From a virus (Duplodnaviria > Heunggongvirae > Uroviricota > Caudoviricetes): a stretch of 41,775 nucleotides of DNA. The notes beneath the pieces were generated by a model. That model saw nothing but the letters and a program-made list of their open reading frames with translations, ran no database searches and was not told where the DNA came from. Made by a program: the position numbers and the translations under genes. Positions 7,821 through 36,206 of this stretch are shown piece after piece. The stretch's first letter is position 1. The number at the start of each line of letters is the position of its first letter. The DNA lies in IMG/VR virus record IMGVR_UViG_2675903658_000008, positions 1-41,775 of that record. The stretch is one strand, 5' to 3'.

Positions 7821-8444
7821 CTATGCGGCCTCGGAAGGAAGTCCAATCATCTTATTCAAATCTTCTACCCGTAAAGCAGGAAGTGCTGTACTTGCTTTAT
7901 CTGCTTCTTTTGGTAGCAATTCTTTGCTTTCAGGCCAAACTTCAATAAGTCGCTTAACTGTTGTTACTGAGTTCAAAGCAGCCCATACATTTGATTCGAT
8001 ATCCTTTTTCAAGGCTTCAAGGTTTTGTTGCAATGCGCAGATTTCATCAAACCTTTTTGTTATTTCGTGTTCTGCGTCAAACATGCATTTATCTTTGGTT
8101 GGAGTAGGGAGCAATATATCTTCGCCGTTGCCGTCTTTCCCATATGAATGCCATCCAACCCTTCTGCCAGATACAGTCAGATAAATTGAAGTAGAAAGAA
8201 CATCGTATGAGTAAAATGAACATCCCATCTTTTCAAGTTCTTCACTTATAGCTACCAACTTGGATGATAACTGATCCACTTCCTCAGTTTTCTTTTTACC
8301 GCCAAACGCAATAACTCTGGCGTCAAGTGCAAGCTGGTTCTTTAACTTTGTTACTTCTTCAAGTTCAGTGAAAACCCCAGACTTAATTAAAGCGTTACGA
8401 GCGATTTCCTCTTTCATTCTCGTAGTTAAGCGGATTGATGACAT
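7821..8444 (-). CDS. Hypothetical protein (207 aa), pL-operon accessory gene
   Basis: AT-rich ORF; start at MSSIRL with GAGAGGAA RBS; no recognisable motif. Confidence 0.6.
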   Translation of the reverse strand: MSSIRLTTRMKEEIARNALIKSGVFTELEEVTKLKNQLALDARVIAFGGKKKTEEVDQLSSKLVAISEELEKMGCSFYSYDVLSTSIYLTVSGRRVGWHSYGKDGNGEDILLPTPTKDKCMFDAEHEITKRFDEICALQQNLEALKKDIESNVWAALNSVTTVKRLIEVWPESKELLPKEADKASTALPALRVEDLNKMIGLPSEAA

Positions 8445-8455
8445 ATTAATTCCTC

Positions 8456-8566
8456 TCAAATAAGTGGTTTGCTGCCTAATTTCATTTTCTGGCGACCAAC
8501 ACAAGTCACACCCATTTCACTGCGTGGCTTGCGGTAGTAAAGATTGTGCCTGTCTTTTAACCACAT
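8456..8566 (-). pseudogene. Remnant of a lambda-type N antiterminator (C-terminal fragment)
   Basis: Open frame encodes ...YYRKPRSEMGVTCVGRQKMKLGSKPLI, resembling recalled lambda N C-terminus; no credible RBS or N-terminal ARM. Confidence 0.4.
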
Positions 8567-9455: not shown

Positions 9456-9492
9456 TGCCAATCTGTTCCGTTTGGCTTCCAGCGTCCTGCTG

Positions 9493-9563
9493 ATGTGTTT
9501 AGTATCACCGCTAGTGGTATTTGTGTCAACACCGCCAGAGATAATTTATCACCGCAGATGGTT
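9493..9563 (-). promoter_or_regulatory. pL promoter with OL1-OL2-OL3 operators
   Basis: Three 17-bp lambda-type operators (TATCACCGCTAGTGGTA, CAACACCGCCAGAGATA, TATCACCGCAGATGGTT); minus-strand TTGACA and GATACT hexamers. Confidence 0.8.
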
Positions 9564-9710
9564 ATCTGTATGTTTTTTATATGGATTTATTTTTTGCAGG
9601 GGTGAATTGTTAGGTAGGTGAGGGATCAGAATTGCACTGTTTAGCAAGTTGTATCTATTAGTTTTCCAATAAATACAAATGGTTATGTGTTGTTGGGAAG
9701 GGGGATCGAG

Positions 9711-9741
9711 AGGCAAAGAAAACCCGGCACTGAGGCCGGGT
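9711..9741 (-). terminator. Rho-independent terminator after the rex-position cassette
   Basis: AACCCGGC-CTCAGT-GCCGGGTT hairpin followed by TTCTTTG on the minus strand, just past the 9748 stop. Confidence 0.5.
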
Positions 9742-9747
9742 TGTGTG

Positions 9748-10119
9748 TTACTTAAGAACGAGTCCGTTTAAGGCATCAAGGATTTTGGAAACATAACTTC
9801 CAAAAATGTAGGCGCAAAATGCGAACACGAAACTGACAACGACCGCAGATGCCTTAATGGTGGTTTTTGCTGAGCTAATGCTTGTCTCAATACCTGACAG
9901 ACGAGAATCAACAGATTTTATATCTGACTTTACCTCAGCGAGATCGCGCTTGATGTATTCAACATCAGACTCTAGCTTTGCAACTCTAGCCTCAAGCATG
10001 TTACCTCCGCCGTTTCCTCCACCATGCCGAGAGTATGCATCATCAGTGGAATAGTGTCCAATTGGGCGAGATATGTTTTGATTTGGACGAAGCTGAGCAA
10101 CCTTGTTATCTAAACTCAT
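9748..10119 (-). CDS. Coiled-coil protein with C-terminal transmembrane anchor (candidate membrane effector, rexB position)
   Basis: ATG overlaps upstream gene stop; Gly-rich N-terminus, heptad-like coiled coil, hydrophobic ASAVVVSFVFAFCAYIFGSYV near C-terminus; internal GGAGG before Met41. Confidence 0.6.
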   Translation of the reverse strand: MSLDNKVAQLRPNQNISRPIGHYSTDDAYSRHGGGNGGGNMLEARVAKLESDVEYIKRDLAEVKSDIKSVDSRLSGIETSISSAKTTIKASAVVVSFVFAFCAYIFGSYVSKILDALNGLVLK

Positions 10120-10543
10120 CGCGAACTGATCCTGTTATCTTCACGTCAAAAAACGAACTTTTTACATCAATTACTTCGCCTTTCTCAGGATTAACCAGTG
10201 ATGCTCTAACTTCGAATATCCCAGGCTTGATAATTTTCACCCTTGGGAAGTTAATTCTCATAGAAGTTGATACGATGGTTTCTCCATCGTTGGCTTCTGC
10301 TACCGTAAAAAACTTATGGTTGGAGTACAGTTTTGTGTCAATTGGTATCGGTATTTCTTGAGCATTGAAAACCTCAATGCCTATGGAATATTTTTTTGTA
10401 GCCTTAAGGCCGATAAAAAAAGCGCCAAATGACAGATCCACTTCATGGGAGTCTTTATCCATTTCATAGATAAGAACTGGAGTTACGGGGTTGCCTTCAT
10501 CCATCGCAATCGGAATGATATAAGAAATACGTTCTTTAATCAT
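10106..10543 (-). CDS. Hypothetical soluble protein (145 aa), rexA position directly after cI
   Basis: Starts 7 nt after cI stop; AT-rich; no recognisable catalytic motif. Confidence 0.65.
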   Translation of the reverse strand: MIKERISYIIPIAMDEGNPVTPVLIYEMDKDSHEVDLSFGAFFIGLKATKKYSIGIEVFNAQEIPIPIDTKLYSNHKFFTVAEANDGETIVSTSMRINFPRVKIIKPGIFEVRASLVNPEKGEVIDVKSSFFDVKITGSVRDEFR

Positions 10544-10550
10544 TTACGTG

Positions 10551-11267
<717 letters not shown>

Positions 11268-11274
11268 TTAAATC

Positions 11275-11340
11275 TATCACCGCAAGGGATAAATATCTAA
11301 CACCGTGCGTGTTGACTATTTTACCTCTAGCGGTGATAAT
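11275..11340. promoter_or_regulatory. OR3-OR2-OR1 operators with divergent pRM and pR
   Basis: TATCACCGCAAGGGATA, TAACACCGTGCGTGTTG, TACCTCTAGCGGTGATA; TTGACT and GATAAT hexamers for pR. Confidence 0.85.
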
Positions 11341-11355
11341 GATTGCATGTACTAA

Positions 11356-11565
<210 letters not shown>

Positions 11566-11572
11566 GTAACAC

Positions 11573-11606
11573 CGCTCTTTATCAATCTGCACCGCCGACA
11601 ACGCGG
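11573..11606 (+). promoter_or_regulatory. nutR (boxA CGCTCTTTA plus boxB hairpin)
   Basis: CGCTCTTTA followed by ACCGC-CGACAA-CGCGGT hairpin, P22-type nutR as recalled. Confidence 0.55.
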
Positions 11607-15390: not shown

Positions 15391-15563
15391 GACGACAGCG
15401 ACGAAGTATCACCGACATCATCTGCGAAAACTGCAAATACCTTCCAACGAAGCGCTCCAGAAATAAACGCAAGCCAATCCCAAAAGAATCTGACGTAAAA
15501 ACCTTCAACTACACGGCTCACCTGTGGGATATCCGGTGGCTAAGACATCGTGCGAGGAAATGA
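15387..15563 (+). CDS. NinD-like small Cys-containing protein
   Basis: [20 protein letters not shown]... matches recalled lambda NinD; ATGA overlap with ninB stop. Confidence 0.55.
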
Positions 15564-15565
15564 CG

Positions 15566-16510
15566 ATGACTGCGTATTACAACGAAATAGATCCGTATGC
15601 AGCGCAATGGCTGCGTAACTTAATTGACGCTGGAGAAATTGCCCCCGGTTATGTAGATGAAAGGAGTATTGAAGATGTCACACCAGGTGATTTGCGAGGA
15701 TTTACCCAGCACCACTTTTTTGCAGGAATCGGAGTTTGGAGCTATGCACTTAGAAAAGCAGGATGGCCAGACAACAAGAGTATCTGGACAGGAAGTTGCC
15801 CATGCCAACCTTTCAGCTCGGCAGGCAAAGGAAAAGGGGTTGATGACGAGCGGCACTTATGGCCGGCATTCTTCTGGCTTATTGAAAAATGCAATCCTGG
15901 CATCGTTATTGGCGAACAGGTTGCAAGCGCAGACGGCCTCGCTTGGCTCGACCTTGTACAAACTGACTTGGAAGGTGCGAACTACACCTCTGCAGGTACC
16001 GATATTTGCGCTGCGGGCTTCGGTTCTCCGCACATCAGGCAGCGATTGTATTGGGTGGCCTACTCCAACGACAAATATCAACTTTCAGCCAGAAACGCGC
16101 AGGGGAATTCAGAACCTATCTGGATGCGTGAGACTAGCGGGATGGCAAACTCCTTTAGCGAACGATGCAACAGGTTCAACGCATTGCTACAGCGGAAAAG
16201 ACAAGAGCGGAACCCCAAGAATCTGCTTGAAACTTCCAGGGACGGTGAAGCCATGTACTCATTACCGGTTAACGGCTTCTGGAGAGATGCAGACTGGCTT
16301 TACTGTAGAGATGAAAAATATCGTCCAGTTAGACCCGGCTCATTCCCGATGGTTAATGGCATTGCCAAAAGCTTGGGACGAGGCAAGTCCACACTGGGAG
16401 GAATGGCAAAGCGCAATCAAGATCAGCGAATTATTGGATATGGAAACGCAATCAATGCAGAAGTAGCAACGGCATTCGTGAAAGTTTGTATGGAGGTTGT
16501 TAATGCTTAG
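15566..16510 (+). CDS. DNA cytosine-5 methyltransferase-like protein (orphan)
   Basis: PCQPFSSAG catalytic motif IV, GEQV (ENV-like), RQRLYW (QxRxR-like); FFAGIG weak motif I; no adjacent nuclease. Confidence 0.7.
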   Translation: MTAYYNEIDPYAAQWLRNLIDAGEIAPGYVDERSIEDVTPGDLRGFTQHHFFAGIGVWSYALRKAGWPDNKSIWTGSCPCQPFSSAGKGKGVDDERHLWPAFFWLIEKCNPGIVIGEQVASADGLAWLDLVQTDLEGANYTSAGTDICAAGFGSPHIRQRLYWVAYSNDKYQLSARNAQGNSEPIWMRETSGMANSFSERCNRFNALLQRKRQERNPKNLLETSRDGEAMYSLPVNGFWRDADWLYCRDEKYRPVRPGSFPMVNGIAKSLGRGKSTLGGMAKRNQDQRIIGYGNAINAEVATAFVKVCMEVVNA

Positions 16511-18065: not shown

Positions 18066-18250
18066 ACGCCACAATTCAAACGATACCAGAGCTTCTTATC
18101 CAGACACGAGGCAATCAGACCGAAGTGGCGAGGATGCTTTCCTGCGCAAGAGGAACAGTGCTCAAGTACAACCGAGACAGCAAAGGTGAGCGTCACGTAA
18201 TAGTTAACGGCGTCCTGATGGTCAAACAAGGCAAGAGGGGAAGACGATGA
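18062..18250 (+). CDS. ninH: NinH-like protein
   Basis: TIPELL...GNQTEVARML.C.RGTV.KY matches recalled lambda NinH. Confidence 0.7.
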   Translation: MNATIQTIPELLIQTRGNQTEVARMLSCARGTVLKYNRDSKGERHVIVNGVLMVKQGKRGRR

Positions 18251-18765
18251 GCATAAGAGAACTAAACCTCACCAAAGAGCAGCACGAGTGGCTGAATGGC
18301 TGGCTTGAACTGTGGGGCGCATGGGTTTATTCAGGTCGTCTGGAAAAGCGCATGAGCAGCGTAATAGCGAAGTTCATGGAGAGCGTAGAGCCGGGAAGAG
18401 TTATGACAAGGCCAATGTGTAATGATGATGATGGAATGTTGATTTCTCAGGTCGTCGATTCCGTCATGTGCATTGACAAGAAAGCCTTTGGAATCCTCCT
18501 CAGCTACTACGCTCATGGTTCATCTAAGCGAGCAATTGCATCCTACTATCACGCGACTGCAAAGCCACGCAAGATGTGTGGACGTGGTGGCGAGGGATGG
18601 AGAAAACCTTCACTGGCAACCTGTAGAAACGAAATTGACGACATCCTGAAAGCGTCGTTATTTGTTTTGTACCAACCAATGCAAAATGCTTTCAAAATGC
18701 GTAAACGTGTTGAGAAAGTTAAGCATGTTGCTGTTAAAAGCCTTGACATGCAATTAGCCATTTAG
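18247..18765 (+). CDS. Late-gene antiterminator Q-like protein (non-lambda type)
   Basis: Position after nin genes before lysis cassette; N-terminal EWL..W..WG.W motif; immediately followed by promoter. Confidence 0.65.
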   Translation: MSIRELNLTKEQHEWLNGWLELWGAWVYSGRLEKRMSSVIAKFMESVEPGRVMTRPMCNDDDGMLISQVVDSVMCIDKKAFGILLSYYAHGSSKRAIASYYHATAKPRKMCGRGGEGWRKPSLATCRNEIDDILKASLFVLYQPMQNAFKMRKRVEKVKHVAVKSLDMQLAI

Positions 18766-18828: not shown

Positions 18829-18903
18829 GGGTCAGTCGTATAAAGGTCATTACGGAAGGCTGTTAACCTTCTTATCGTGGTTCGAGTCCACGCTGTCCCG
18901 CCA
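18829..18903 (+). tRNA. tRNA-like gene, anticodon GTT (Asn) by hand folding
   Basis: 75 nt; perfect 5-bp anticodon and T stems, TTCGAGT T-loop, CCA end; one mismatch each in acceptor and D stems. Confidence 0.5.
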
Positions 18904-18908
18904 AATAT

Positions 18909-18984
18909 GCTGGTTTAGCTCCAATGGTAGAGCAGTCGCCTTGTAAGCGAATGGGTAGCGGTTCAAGTCCGTTAACCAGCACCA
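18909..18984 (+). tRNA. tRNA-like gene, anticodon TGT (Thr) by hand folding
   Basis: 76 nt; perfect 7-bp acceptor stem, D-arm, TTCAAGT T-loop, CCA end; one G-A mismatch closing anticodon stem. Confidence 0.55.
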
Positions 18985-19226: not shown

Positions 19227-19550
19227 ATGAAGATGCCAGAAAAACATGACCTGTTAGCCGCCATTCTCGCGGCAAAGGAACAAGGCATCGGGGCAATCCT
19301 TGCGTTTGCAATGGCGTACCTTCGCGGCAGGTATAATGGCGGTGCGTTTACAAAAACAGTAATCGACGCAACGATGTGCGCCATTATCGCCTGGTTCATT
19401 CGTGACCTTCTCGACTTCGCCGGACTAAGTAGCAATCTCGCTTATATAACTAGCGTGTTCATCGGCTACATCGGTACTGACTCGATTGGTTCGCTTATCA
19501 AACGCTTCGCTGCTAAAAAAGCCGGAGTAGAAGATGGTGGAAATCAATAA
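19227..19550 (+). CDS. S: Holin, lambda S (dual-start MKM motif)
   Basis: 107-aa translation matches recalled lambda S. Confidence 0.95.
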
Positions 19551-20010
19551 TCAACGTAAGGCGTTCCTCGATATGCTGGCGTGGTCAGAGGGAACTGATA
19601 ACGGACGTCAGAAAACCAGAAATCATGGTTATGACGTCATTGTAGGCGGAGAGCTATTCACTGATTACTCCGATCACCCTCGCAAACTTGTCACGCTAAA
19701 CCCCAAACTCAAATCAACAGCAGCCGGACGTTACCAGATTCTTTCCCGTTGGTGGGATGCCTATCGTAAGCAGCTTGGCCTGAAAGACTTCTCTCCGAAA
19801 AGCCAGGACGCCGTTGCGCTGCAGCAGATTAAGGAGCGTGGCGCTTTACCGATGATTGATCGCGGTGATATTCGTCAGGCAATCGACCGTTGCAGCAATA
19901 TCTGGGCTTCACTGCCGGGCGCTGGTTATGGTCAGTTCGAGCATAAGGCTGACAGCCTGATTGCAAAATTCAAAGAAGCTGGCGGAACGGTAAGAGAGAT
20001 TGAGGTATGA
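19534..20010 (+). CDS. R: Endolysin, lambda R lytic transglycosylase
   Basis: 158-aa translation matches recalled lambda R. Confidence 0.95.
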
Positions 20011-20474
20011 GCAGAGTAACCGCGATTATCTCCGCTCTGGTTATCTGCATCATCGTCTGCCTGTCATGGGCTGTTAATCATTACCGTGATAATGCCATCG
20101 CCTACAAAGAACAGCGTGATAAAAAAGTCAGTGAGCTGAAGCAGGCGACCGCCACCATTACTGACATTCAGCAGCGCCAGCGCGATGCTGATGCACTCGA
20201 TGCTAAATACACGAAGGAGTTAGCTGATGCGAAAGCTGAAAATGATGCTCTTCGGCGCAAGCTTGATAATGGTGGCAGGGTGCTCGTCAAAGGAAAATGC
20301 CCTGTGCCATCCTCAGACGAAACCTCCAGCGCCTCCGGCATGGGCAATGATGCCACCGTCGAACTCTCTCCAGTTGCTGGACGAAACGTTCTCGATATCC
20401 GGGACGGAATTATCCGCGACCAAACAGCACTGAGAACGCTTCAGGAATACATCAGGACGCAATGCCTTCGATGA
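20007..20474 (+). CDS. Rz: Inner-membrane spanin Rz
   Basis: N-terminal TM and coiled coil matching lambda Rz; C-terminal half divergent. Confidence 0.9.
20227..20433 (+). CDS. Rz1: Outer-membrane lipoprotein spanin Rz1, embedded in Rz
   Basis: +1 frame [11 protein letters not shown]...VAGC lipobox, Pro-rich, as in lambda Rz1. Confidence 0.8.
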
Positions 20475-33633: not shown

Positions 33634-35630
33634 TGGCTAAAGCATGGAAAGATGTTATCGCCTCTCCACAGTATCAGGCGTTAGCACCAGAACAAAAAGC
33701 GCAGGCTCAGGAGCAATACTTCAATGAAGTCGTTGCCCCGCAAGCCGGAGAAAATGCAGAGCAGGCTAAGCAAGCTTTCTATGCTGCCTATCCATTGCCA
33801 TCTGTGCAGCCAGTGGAGACACAACAACCAGTATCACAGCAACAACCACAGCAAAGTGGATTTATGTCGGATCTTGGTGAAGCCGTGAAAGAAACTGGTC
33901 GCGGACTGGTGCAGGCTGGCGTGAACGTGGCAAACATACCTGCATCAGTTGCCGATGCTGTAACAAGCGCGGCGGCATGGGCTGGCGGTAAACTCGGCAT
34001 TGGCGATGGTACATATCAACCAGCGCCACGAGTAACAACGCAGGGGTTAGAGCAGGACTTTGGCCTTCAGCAAGGCGCGCTCACTCCACAAACGACAGAG
34101 GGAAGGGTATTTGCTGAAGCATTGCCTTACCTCACTCCTGCTGGCGTTGAGAGAGCGGCAGCACAGGCACCAACACTTGCTGGTCGAATTGCTCAGGGGG
34201 CAACTCGCCTTCTAGCAGAAAACGCAGTTGGATCACTTGCTGCAAATAGTGCGAAAGATGATGCGGAAGCACTCGCCACCGATTTAGGCGTTGGCGTTCT
34301 GGCTGGCGGTGCTATTAACGCTGCCGGACGTGGATTAGGTGCTGCTTATCGTGGCGTTCGTGGTGCTATTGCGCCAGAAGCGCAGCAGGCTATCAGATTT
34401 GCAGAGCGTGAAGGAGTTCCTCTGCACACCACAGACCTGTTACAGCCTACTTCCCGCGTCGGAAAAATGGCGCAAACGACAGCAGAAAATATCCCCCTGG
34501 CTGGCACAAGCGGAATGAGAGCAACGCAACAGGAAGCGAGAAGCCAGTTGGTTCAGAGATTTGCTGATAAATTCGGTGAGTATGATCCAGCGGTTGTTAT
34601 TGACAGCCTTAAAGCGAAAACATCAGGAATTCGTCGTGCCGCCGGTAATCGACTGGAGCAGGTTCAGAATGCTATGGCGGGAATAAACATTCAGCCTGCA
34701 AGAGCAATTCAGCAGATTGATACAGAAATATCTAACCTGCAGAAGCTTGGTAAGGTTGCTGATAACGAGACTATTTCAAAACTTCAGTCCTATCGTGATG
34801 AGCTTGTTCGCAATGCTGGTCCTGATGGTCCGGTAAATCTGGATTTGAAGCAATTAAGCGATCTGCGCAGCCAGTTCAGAATGGATGTGAAGGGTGAGCG
34901 ACCAGTGTTACCAAACCGTTCCGATGCTGCCATTCAGCGCGTTTACAAGGCAATGACCGACGATATCAATGGTGCCATTGGTCAGAATCTTGGCAACGAT
35001 ACTCTCCGTAAATATCAGCAGGCCAATGCCGTCTACGCTGACGAAGCGGCGAAACTAAAGAATACCATGCTGAAGAATGTTCTCATGAAAGGCGACCTGA
35101 CGCCGGAAGTTGTCAACAACATGCTATTCAGCAAGAACAAATCGGAAATTAAGACGCTGTATAACTCAGTTGGTCGTGTTGGCAGGGCGCAAATGCGCAA
35201 TGGCATCATTGGAAAGGCGATGGAGAAATCAGGTGGTTCCCCTGATCAGTTCCTTCGACAGCTTAACATCCTGCAAAACCAGACTGGCATCACATTTAAG
35301 GGGCAGGACGCTGCTTATCTGAAAGGATTGAAAAACTACCTGCAATCCACGCAGCAGGCTGCAAAAGCGGCAGTAACAACACCAACAGGGCAGCAAACCA
35401 TCCCGTTCATTATCGGGTATGGGACAGCAATGAACCCGGCGACAACTGGCGCAGCGGTAAGCTACGGACTTCTTACTCGCGCCTATGAGAGCGAACCATT
35501 CAGAAATGCAATGCTCCGAATGGCAAACACACCACGCGGATCGACAGCGTTTGAGAAAGCCATGCAGCAAGCGCAAAAAGCGATTAATGCACTGACGCAG
35601 GGTGCTAAGTCTGATTCGTTGTCAGAATAG
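33633..35630 (+). CDS. Ejection protein, gp16-like
   Basis: 665 aa in gene-16 position. Confidence 0.6.
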   Translation: MAKAWKDVIASPQYQALAPEQKAQAQEQYFNEVVAPQAGENAEQAKQAFYAAYPLPSVQPVETQQPVSQQQPQQSGFMSDLGEAVKETGRGLVQAGVNVANIPASVADAVTSAAAWAGGKLGIGDGTYQPAPRVTTQGLEQDFGLQQGALTPQTTEGRVFAEALPYLTPAGVERAAAQAPTLAGRIAQGATRLLAENAVGSLAANSAKDDAEALATDLGVGVLAGGAINAAGRGLGAAYRGVRGAIAPEAQQAIRFAEREGVPLHTTDLLQPTSRVGKMAQTTAENIPLAGTSGMRATQQEARSQLVQRFADKFGEYDPAVVIDSLKAKTSGIRRAAGNRLEQVQNAMAGINIQPARAIQQIDTEISNLQKLGKVADNETISKLQSYRDELVRNAGPDGPVNLDLKQLSDLRSQFRMDVKGERPVLPNRSDAAIQRVYKAMTDDINGAIGQNLGNDTLRKYQQANAVYADEAAKLKNTMLKNVLMKGDLTPEVVNNMLFSKNKSEIKTLYNSVGRVGRAQMRNGIIGKAMEKSGGSPDQFLRQLNILQNQTGITFKGQDAAYLKGLKNYLQSTQQAAKAAVTTPTGQQTIPFIIGYGTAMNPATTGAAVSYGLLTRAYESEPFRNAMLRMANTPRGSTAFEKAMQQAQKAINALTQGAKSDSLSE

Positions 35631-35720
35631 CCTTTCAAACACCAGGAACGTGCAAAAACCAAATATGTAGAACGCGAGGTTTATCGTATTCCTCTGCATA
35701 GGCGATACCTTTGCTGATTG

Positions 35721-36206
35721 TTATCTGATGTTACTGCTACTGTTGCATGTTACCGCGTTTCCAAATCCTGAATTGCAGTTTGTATATGTGTCAACGCGTG
35801 TTGGGTAAGGTTGAGTTATAACAGGCTGGCGCGCTTTTTGCTCGATCGCTTGCATTGTGTTTACAGCCTGATAATTCAATAAAGCCTGCTGGAATGCTTG
35901 GCTTTGTGCTATTTGTTGGGCTTGTTCTTGGCTTTGTAATTGAACATAAAGATTCTGAAGCTCAAGTCTTGCCTGTGCGTCACTTATCTTGCCTTCATCG
36001 ACACCTTGCCCGAGCATCTTTGCAGCAAGGACATACAGCTTAGGTGTTGGTGCTGATGCCATGCGTGAGTCGTTCTTCACACTGGCATCAAGGCAATTAG
36101 CCATATCGCTAAGCTTTTGATAGCGTTGTTCGCAACTTGCTTGATAGTCACTTACTTTTGCGCACCCAGCCAGCAGAAGCGGGATAATTAACAGTGATTT
36201 TTTCAT
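35721..36206 (-). CDS. Lipoprotein of unknown function (candidate superinfection-exclusion moron)
   Basis: MKKSLLIIPLLLAGC signal peptide with lipobox; AAGGAGAG RBS; Gln-rich coiled coil; P22 sieA position. Confidence 0.65.
   Translation of the reverse strand: MKKSLLIIPLLLAGCAKVSDYQASCEQRYQKLSDMANCLDASVKNDSRMASAPTPKLYVLAAKMLGQGVDEGKISDAQARLELQNLYVQLQSQEQAQQIAQSQAFQQALLNYQAVNTMQAIEQKARQPVITQPYPTRVDTYTNCNSGFGNAVTCNSSSNIR

Follow-up and report, generated by a model that had tools for sequence, protein, structure and literature searches.

The window, i.e. the whole stretch of 41,775 nucleotides (nt) that was analysed (IMG/VR record IMGVR_UViG_2675903658_000008, positions 1 to 41,775), is an Escherichia coli prophage with P22-like packaging genes. 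Directly downstream of its cI repressor gene lie two overlapping open reading frames (ORFs) on the minus strand, designated ORF-A and ORF-B, whose products A and B are the subject of this study. The cassette formed by the two genes is a repressor-linked prophage cargo of the Rex type. Judged from its position and from the architecture of its products, there is about an even chance that it is a lysogen-expressed accessory ('moron') operon encoding a Rex-like two-part system of phage exclusion or abortive infection. A sequence-only reading of the same DNA had placed the pair immediately after cI, and its coordinates were borne out: the cI stop codon is followed by a gap of 7 nt before the start of ORF-A, and ORF-A and ORF-B overlap by 14 nt. 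No terminator was found between cI, A and B; the only one follows B and consists of an 8-pair stem (6 G-C pairs) and a T-run (9742..9721 and beyond). In comparisons with diverged homologues, the ratio of non-synonymous to synonymous substitution rates (dN/dS) was 0.11 in A; in B it was 0.31-0.34 over codons 1-40 and 0.07-0.19 over the coil and tail. Both ORFs are real genes, each of them under purifying selection. The earlier statement that both are markedly AT-rich relative to cI held for A (GC content 0.379), but not for B, whose GC content of 0.430 was close to that of cI (0.438).

The backbone surrounding the pair is that of phage lambda. The cI protein is identical to lambda cI at 225 of 237 residues. 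In blastn comparisons, window positions 10555-11579 showed 92.8% DNA identity to the cI-cro region of lambda, and positions 9482-9742 showed 90.4% DNA identity to lambda 35570-35826, which extends from OL/pL to the end of rexB. The borders of the cassette were set at the blastn breakpoints against lambda and phage PhiR5_2; 812 bp (9743-10554) stand here where lambda has 1,404 bp with rexA-rexB. As both flanks match lambda at 90-93%, the cassette replaces rexAB exactly, in agreement with the rexA-rexB position that had been proposed for the pair. The terminator hairpin predicted after the two genes was also found, but it is not the cassette's own: it lies inside the lambda-homologous block (90% identical) and thus belongs to the shared backbone. 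The coordinates of all features are compiled in Table 1.

The slot downstream of the repressor is a known hotspot of mosaic diversity, with rexAB as its occupant in lambda (Owen et al., PMC8585504). A survey of what follows cI in related phages revealed four alternative cargoes in the interval between cI and the terminator of the lambda-immunity backbone, i.e. rexAB, hicB/hicA (phages mEp234 and HK106), a gene for a BstA-like protein of 253 amino acids (aa) in PhiR5_2 (PADLOC BstA model, E=2.5e-20) and the A-B pair. The slot had been described beforehand as one known for exclusion and abortive-infection cargo; RexAB and the BstA-like occupant, which belong to abortive-infection families established by experiment, and also the HicAB toxin-antitoxin pair, fit this description. 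The region was 100% identical in E. coli strain FHI_NMBU_03 and about 95% identical in the enteropathogenic E. coli (EPEC) strain E2348/69, and the cassette was carried by about 14-16 of 5,426 complete E. coli genomes.

Table 1. Features of the cI operon and its downstream edge (window coordinates)
Feature	Position	Strand	Remarks
cI repressor, lambda immunity type, 237 aa	10551..11264	minus	HTH_3 and Peptidase_S24; first gene of the cassette operon
ORF-A, 145 aa, variable 'partner' gene, predicted cytoplasmic Ig-like beta-sandwich	10106..10543	minus	
ORF-B, 123 aa, XhlA-like tail-anchored coiled-coil membrane protein (predicted)	9748..10119	minus	phrog_6136 match
B residues 1-40, variable disordered N-terminal region closing with the GGGNGGGN hinge	10000..10119	minus	
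Candidate internal ribosome-binding site and start: GGAGG 10008-10004, 4-nt spacer, in-frame ATG 9999-9997	9997..10008	minus	
B residues 42-88, uninterrupted heptad coiled coil	9856..9996	minus	
B residues 92-110, predicted transmembrane helix	9790..9846	minus	followed by a 13-residue C-terminal tail, 9751-9789
Intrinsic terminator of the cI operon, tIMM equivalent, lambda-like backbone	9711..9742	minus	
Inserted cassette, bounded by loss of homology to lambda	9743..10554	minus	inner module boundary 10003/10002
pL promoter with OL operators, downstream edge of the immunity slot	9501..9529	minus	TTGACA-17-GATACT

Protein A showed no match in Pfam, NCBIfam or PADLOC, and falls in phrog_5893, a family of unknown function in PHROGs. 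Searched exhaustively with HMMER, 1.84 billion representatives yielded 19 matches to the A profile, none of which was annotated; a broader profile (A4) yielded 81 clusters, all from Enterobacterales and all labelled 'hypothetical'. The statement that A has no recognisable motif therefore stood at the level of sequence, but not at the level of structure, where a confident immunoglobulin (Ig)-like beta-sandwich was predicted (predicted local distance difference test, pLDDT, 85.9). A is without a hydrophobic segment or signal peptide and no catalytic signature was found in it. On the predicted structure, A is a cytoplasmic binding module and not an enzyme.

Protein B matched phrog_6136, likewise a family of unknown function, with E=3e-46. 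The AlphaFold2 model of B (predicted template modelling score 0.27) consisted of a single helix from residue 41 to 122, preceded by disordered residues 1-40 (pLDDT below 50), the last eight of which (33-40) are the Gly-rich hinge GGGNGGGN. Residues 42-88 are in unbroken heptad register; their a/d positions read LVLVILVIVLIIAI, with L, I, V or M at 13 of 14, and residues 92-110, AVVVSFVFAFCAYIFGSYV, gave a Kyte-Doolittle mean of 2.1 over 19 residues. Hydropathy, heptad analysis and model thus agreed with the earlier description of B as a Gly-rich N-terminal part, a heptad coiled coil and a C-terminal hydrophobic anchor. No signal peptide was found in B, and almost no part of it is extracytoplasmic. 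Its profile matches in the PDB were coiled coils, trimeric ones among them (Lpp, designed trimers). In a metagenome copy of B (P0024), identical to residue 85, a frameshift was observed that replaces the membrane helix with unrelated sequence, so that the tail is lost.

Many homologues of B carry the NCBI product name 'hemolysin XhlA'. The Pfam XhlA profile (PF10779) aligned to residues 42-95 of B with 21.6 bits, as compared with a gathering threshold of 34.7 bits, and the name therefore rests on a sub-threshold resemblance. Weak matches to XhlA (E<=0.01, best 8.3e-6) were obtained for 25 of 38 members of the B family, all of them sub-threshold, and FlaC_arch and other coiled-coil families matched the relatives of B about as often. 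B is XhlA-like in its predicted architecture; membership of XhlA is not established. The large XhlA haemolysin of Xenorhabdus is unrelated to the small lysis protein of PBSX, and the Pfam description apparently refers to the former. The label 'haemolysin' on homologues of B hence appears to be a name collision and is misleading for the family.

To place the pair in a wider context, 92 loci encoding relatives of B were collected; most of them stem from a single collection of viral contigs, and because of their redundancy they were de-duplicated, the statistics given below taking no account of kinship. A coupled upstream partner gene of about 90-190 codons was present at 90 of the 92 loci, with a gap of -56 to +6 nt. 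An iterated profile joined 46 of 55 distinct partners in one very diverged beta-sandwich superfamily; the remaining partners were Zn-ribbon-like proteins (CPICG...CxxCG), a 90-aa family or a singleton. At loci L036-L041, L060-L063 and L075, and at L056 and L093, the beta-sandwich partner was swapped for a Zn-ribbon-like protein of about 110-130 aa or for a 90-aa protein. The replacement partners each came with their own matching B N-terminus, and the 90-aa type sits after an Arc-like repressor.

The pair was prophage-restricted and repressor-linked, and the family was spread across Enterobacterales prophages regardless of pathotype. Among 58 distinct genes immediately upstream of the pair, HTH_3 was found in 40, Peptidase_S24 in 22, Phage_CI_repr in 17 and Arc in three. 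At least four kinds of repressor, unrelated to one another, were represented: lambda cI, other S24 repressors, short HTH-only repressors and Arc-like repressors; those of the HTH-only kind stand in Rac-type neighbourhoods, next to ydaS/ydaT and with recE/recT downstream. A nearly identical cassette was also found behind a different repressor of 245 aa (L019), from which it follows that the cassette moves as a unit. Pairs without an adjacent repressor were observed in Providencia (L012 and L013, 3523-4369) and at L059-L063, among tail or baseplate genes or after DUF6246 proteins, and one of the pairs in a tail/baseplate region adjoins a divergent Arc gene.

Comparison of the loci showed one plan for B, in which a variable N-terminus is joined through the Gly hinge to a conserved coil; the membrane tail that follows belongs to one of several types unrelated to each other. 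Three tail types were common and further types occurred in L075, L098, P0092 and P0096, at least five in all. The partners clustered into 17 types. The clusters of partners and of B N-termini corresponded closely (adjusted Rand index 0.95), as compared with an index of 0.05 between partner clusters and tail type, and at least two tail types were found with each of four partner clusters. Conservation within the family was highest in the coil, with a median pairwise identity of 63%; the corresponding values were 21% for the partners and 12% for the B N-termini.

At the DNA level the mosaic junction fell at the hinge. The Salmonella loci L010 and L064 were 67-92% identical to the window from just upstream of A through the hinge, and about 30% identical over the tail. 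Conversely, loci with other partners (L003, L032 and L034) were unrelated over A and 78-87% identical from the hinge onward. A further case was Escherichia marmotae L098 (1856-3324, aligned to window 10699-9744), which was 98.7% identical from cI to position 10003 in the hinge and showed no similarity from there until the terminator. In L098 the same cI, A and B N-terminus are joined to an entirely different coil and membrane tail, which starts with GGA GGT GAT GAT GTG. Taken together, the sequence comparisons suggest that the partner and the N-terminus of B form a fast-diverging specificity part and that the membrane part is conserved, as would be expected of a sensor-effector pair.

The hinge of B also contains a candidate internal translation start. 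Its codons read GGC GGA GGT AAC ATG (10008-9997), in which GGAGG precedes an in-frame ATG by 4 nt. The post-hinge residue was Met (ATG) in 34 of 35 distinct hinge DNAs and Val (GTG) in the other, a second GTG case being supplied by L098, and this Met was more conserved than the adjacent structural residues. A GGAGG-like word 4-10 nt upstream was kept despite amino acid changes (GAA GGA GGT; AGA GGG). Shine-Dalgarno (SD)-like cores were present in 26 of the 35 hinge DNAs, as compared with 17.5±2.8 by synonymous resampling, and the mean anti-SD duplex energy was -10.7 kcal/mol, as compared with -9.0±0.35 kcal/mol after resampling; the sequences are not phylogenetically independent, and both figures are indicative only. 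The exchangeable 3' module of L098 opens with GGAGGTGATGAT-GTG at the module boundary, just upstream of the internal start, and one public gene call (P0075) begins at the internal Met. P0096 was also considered as a natural short B, but was rejected, as the gene is cut by the end of its contig.

A short form of B starting at the internal ATG would be 83 aa long and comprise only the coil and the membrane helix, and the stretch aligned to the Pfam XhlA profile corresponds to this putative product. Nested long and short products of B are plausible from the sequences, although we would place them short of an even chance. A weak sigma-70-like site, TGGACA-17-CATACT (9 of 12 matches), was noted on the minus strand at 10032-10060, in the 5' part of ORF-B and upstream of the internal start; sites of this kind are expected by chance at such a rate. 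Lambda rexB has a separate promoter, of which this site is reminiscent.

Neither A nor B showed similarity to RexA or RexB by PADLOC, Pfam or NCBIfam; neither matched the BstA model of PADLOC, and no toxin or antitoxin domain of Pfam or NCBIfam was found in either. The hits of B in PADLOC were weak coiled-coil matches only, to CorA-like (15 bits), LmuB and PbeC. Profile searches of both proteins and a structural search of A, which had been proposed as checks on the sequence-only reading, gave no confident homology to characterised non-defence proteins. Megablast of the cassette against the phage collection gave no match, and phages epsilon34 and g341c surfaced at the protein level only. These Salmonella phages encode homologues of A and B directly after the repressor, as genes 45/44 in epsilon34 and genes 40/39 in g341c. 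The epsilon34 pair was described in 2008 as apparently forming an operon that follows the repressor 'like rexA and rexB', with no function assigned and no database matches at that time (PMC2629481). The RefSeq accessions of the cassette were found in no searchable paper; a recent characterisation may exist elsewhere. As far as was found, the existence of the pair was thus noted in 2008; the fold and family of its members, their modular build and the possible nested start are apparently new.

The analysis shows the gene structure, the position, the predicted folds, the pairing throughout the family and its modularity. From it as a whole we infer a contact between A and B, pore formation, a trigger and a defence phenotype, and a Rex-like two-part exclusion system would then work as follows. 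A and B would be transcribed together with cI from pRM/pRE, the transcript ending at the backbone terminator. B would be a tail-anchored inner-membrane protein in which the heptad coil runs straight into a single membrane helix, and once the coil oligomerises, the membrane helices would be drawn together so as to form a lesion or channel, similar to holins or XhlA. A and the matching disordered N-terminal peptide of B would form the specificity part, with A restraining the long form of B through this peptide, a contact suggested by their co-variation. Engagement of A by some component of the infecting phage would release B for assembly, and the assembled B would collapse the membrane potential or trigger early lysis, so that the infection is aborted. 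The short form of B, if made, may tune or antagonise the long form, either setting the threshold or protecting the resident phage itself. Self-protection has been proposed to result from an excess of RexB (PMC8585504).

A wider proposal can be built on the same observations, namely that the pair represents an Enterobacterales-wide modular family of prophage immunity. In such a family a hypervariable recognition cassette would be recombined at the Gly hinge onto interchangeable XhlA-like effectors that bring their own ribosome-binding site and start. Each locus would then have two products, a long one that is regulated and a short one that is free, the logic of holin and antiholin being repurposed for sensing and aborting infection. 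We consider this proposal rather doubtful.

Several observations weigh against a Rex-like defence pair or against parts of it. No member of the A or B family matched a known or candidate defence model in PADLOC-DB 2.0 (2023) beyond coiled-coil noise. The RefSeq accessions of the cassette were absent from the DefensePredictor supplementary tables examined, and no two-gene candidate of the size of the cassette was present in parts 1-2 of its table of tested systems. The fold of A is generic and has no sensor-specific feature beyond being a variable binding fold, and the co-variation of A with the N-terminus of B could be explained by physical linkage of adjacent DNA segments alone. The relationship of B to XhlA, being below the Pfam threshold, may reflect coiled-coil composition. 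With respect to the internal start, a Gly-rich hinge tends to yield SD-like words in any case, as half of the synonymous resamples contained them, and kinship among the sequences affects these statistics as well. Finally, a minority of the pairs lie in tail-gene regions and not beside a repressor; such regions are another typical moron site. The proposal of a sensor plus a tail-anchored effector, as made from the sequence, is thus favoured by the exact rexAB slot and the modular family, and disfavoured by the lack of a PADLOC match and of any sensor-diagnostic feature in A.

P22 SieA and HK97 gp15 are comparators for a different kind of protection, i.e. non-lethal superinfection exclusion. Here B, with A as a cytoplasmic adaptor, would block DNA entry or an early membrane step, and the cell would survive. 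This is consistent with a predicted inner-membrane protein encoded in the immunity operon, with the restriction of the pair to prophages and its linkage to repressors, and also with the Rac-type contexts, which place the pair between the repressor gene and ydaE/recE/recT, a region that holds sieB on the Rac map of E. coli K-12. On the other hand, only about 13 residues of B would be periplasmic, where blockers of DNA entry usually act, and the bulk of the protein, its variable part and its partner would be cytoplasmic. A coil that runs into a transmembrane helix also suggests membrane damage driven by assembly over a static block, and we regard non-lethal exclusion as unlikely. A module serving the prophage itself, either an addiction or toxin-antitoxin-like pair (B as toxin and A as neutraliser) or an XhlA-type factor for lysis or the timing of induction, is given the same low probability. 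The XhlA-like architecture of B is in line with it, as are the occurrence of the HicAB toxin-antitoxin in the same lambda slot of mEp234 and HK106 and the possible long and short forms of B, which recall holin/antiholin pairs. The lytic cassette of PBSX, moreover, has the gene of a beta-sandwich protein, xepA, immediately before xhlA (PMC6834076). A, however, is without sequence similarity or top-ranking structural similarity to XepA or YomS, and the genes of the pair are part of an operon that is shut off on induction and not of the late operon. Furthermore, the prophage does not need B for its lysis, as it encodes an S-like holin, an endolysin (lysozyme) and a spanin (Rz-like genes) in a cassette of its own at 19227-20474, and the 17 partner types would be hard to explain by housekeeping lysis or addiction.

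Lysogenic conversion directed toward the environment of the host, with B as a haemolysin or virulence factor, is suggested by the NCBI name 'hemolysin XhlA' and by the presence of the cassette in EPEC E2348/69. This is very improbable: the name derives from a sub-threshold Pfam match, B is without a signal peptide, A is cytoplasmic, and the Enterobacterales prophages that carry the family do so irrespective of pathotype. Position and architecture leave the Rex-like two-part exclusion system as the preferred reading.

Only a few sites in a prophage are transcribed reliably in every lysogen; the interval from the repressor gene to pL/N is among them, and it was the source of both RexAB and BstA. 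The A-B pair adds a third, unrelated type of cargo, and with it a whole family, in which 17 or more recognition modules are combined with five or more membrane tails, behind at least four types of repressor and in many genera of Enterobacterales. If the pair is a defence system, the natural domain swaps would serve as ready-made chimeras by which recognition could be told apart from the shutdown of the cell, and they would allow a coiled-coil tail-anchored protein to be tested as a triggered membrane effector. Such an experiment would be simple, as the cassette is present in the well-studied strain EPEC E2348/69 and in Salmonella phage epsilon34. If the pair is not a defence system, it is a conserved, lysogen-expressed membrane module all the same.

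Other features of the prophage were noted outside the cI operon. In the identical E. coli record, a gene of the pL operon (7821-8504, minus strand) bears the annotation 'Nmad5 family putative nucleotide modification protein'. The 328-aa ORF at 15524-16510 (plus strand) in the nin region contains the motif PCQPFS, which is presumably that typical of DNA cytosine-5 methyltransferases. Genes for tRNA-Asn (GTT) and tRNA-Thr (TGT) are located at 18829-18984 (plus strand), between the holin gene and an ORF at 18247-18765 that is, by position only, a candidate late antiterminator. FHI_NMBU_03 has a single annotated tRNA-Thr where the window has two tRNAs, and the late regions of the two therefore differ.

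Among known systems, lambda RexA-RexB shares with the A-B pair the identical slot after cI and upstream of tIMM/OL, the same terminator, the combination of one soluble and one inner-membrane protein and the proposed logic of a sensor activating a membrane effector. The proteins themselves differ: RexA and RexB are 279 and 144 aa long, as compared with a beta-sandwich of 145 aa and a single-pass, tail-anchored coiled coil of 123 aa, no sequence or profile similarity connects the two pairs, and the A-B family is modular with exchangeable parts. RexB is described as a multi-pass ion-channel protein (PMC8585504). BstA, known from Salmonella phage BTP1 and its relatives, has a counterpart in this very slot of PhiR5_2. 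In contrast to A and B, to which it is not homologous, it is a single protein that localises to phage DNA replication sites and has a DNA-based self-immunity element, aba (PMC8585504).

XhlA of the Bacillus prophage PBSX (PF10779) resembles B in being a small coiled coil with one C-terminal membrane helix and in having the beta-sandwich gene xepA immediately upstream; it has been reported to be essential for PBSX lysis (PMC6834076). Its gene, however, stands together with those of the holin XhlB and the amidase XlyA among the late lysis genes, whereas B is encoded in the immunity operon. No relationship of A to XepA or YomS could be detected, and the family of A does not extend beyond Enterobacterales. 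A distant kinship of the pairs A-B and XepA-XhlA was considered on account of the parallel gene order and rejected, as no sequence link was found and XepA and YomS were absent from the top structural matches; the resemblance is one of analogy only.

SieB-Esc (P22/lambda) and the holin-antiholin pair S107/S105 of lambda are membrane regulators with nested starts, in which the longer product has a regulatory N-terminal extension, SieB being a prophage exclusion function. B may likewise be formed as two in-frame products of one membrane-protein gene. The extension of B differs in comprising 40 residues and in being paired with a partner gene of its own; B has no sequence similarity to these regulators, and its internal start is a putative one. 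True homologues are the genes of epsilon34 and, likewise, genes 40/39 of g341c. In epsilon34, where the repressor is encoded by gene 46, gp45 has 73% identity to A; gp44 has the N-terminus and the hinge in common with B, its match covering residues 1-65 only, and differs in the remainder.

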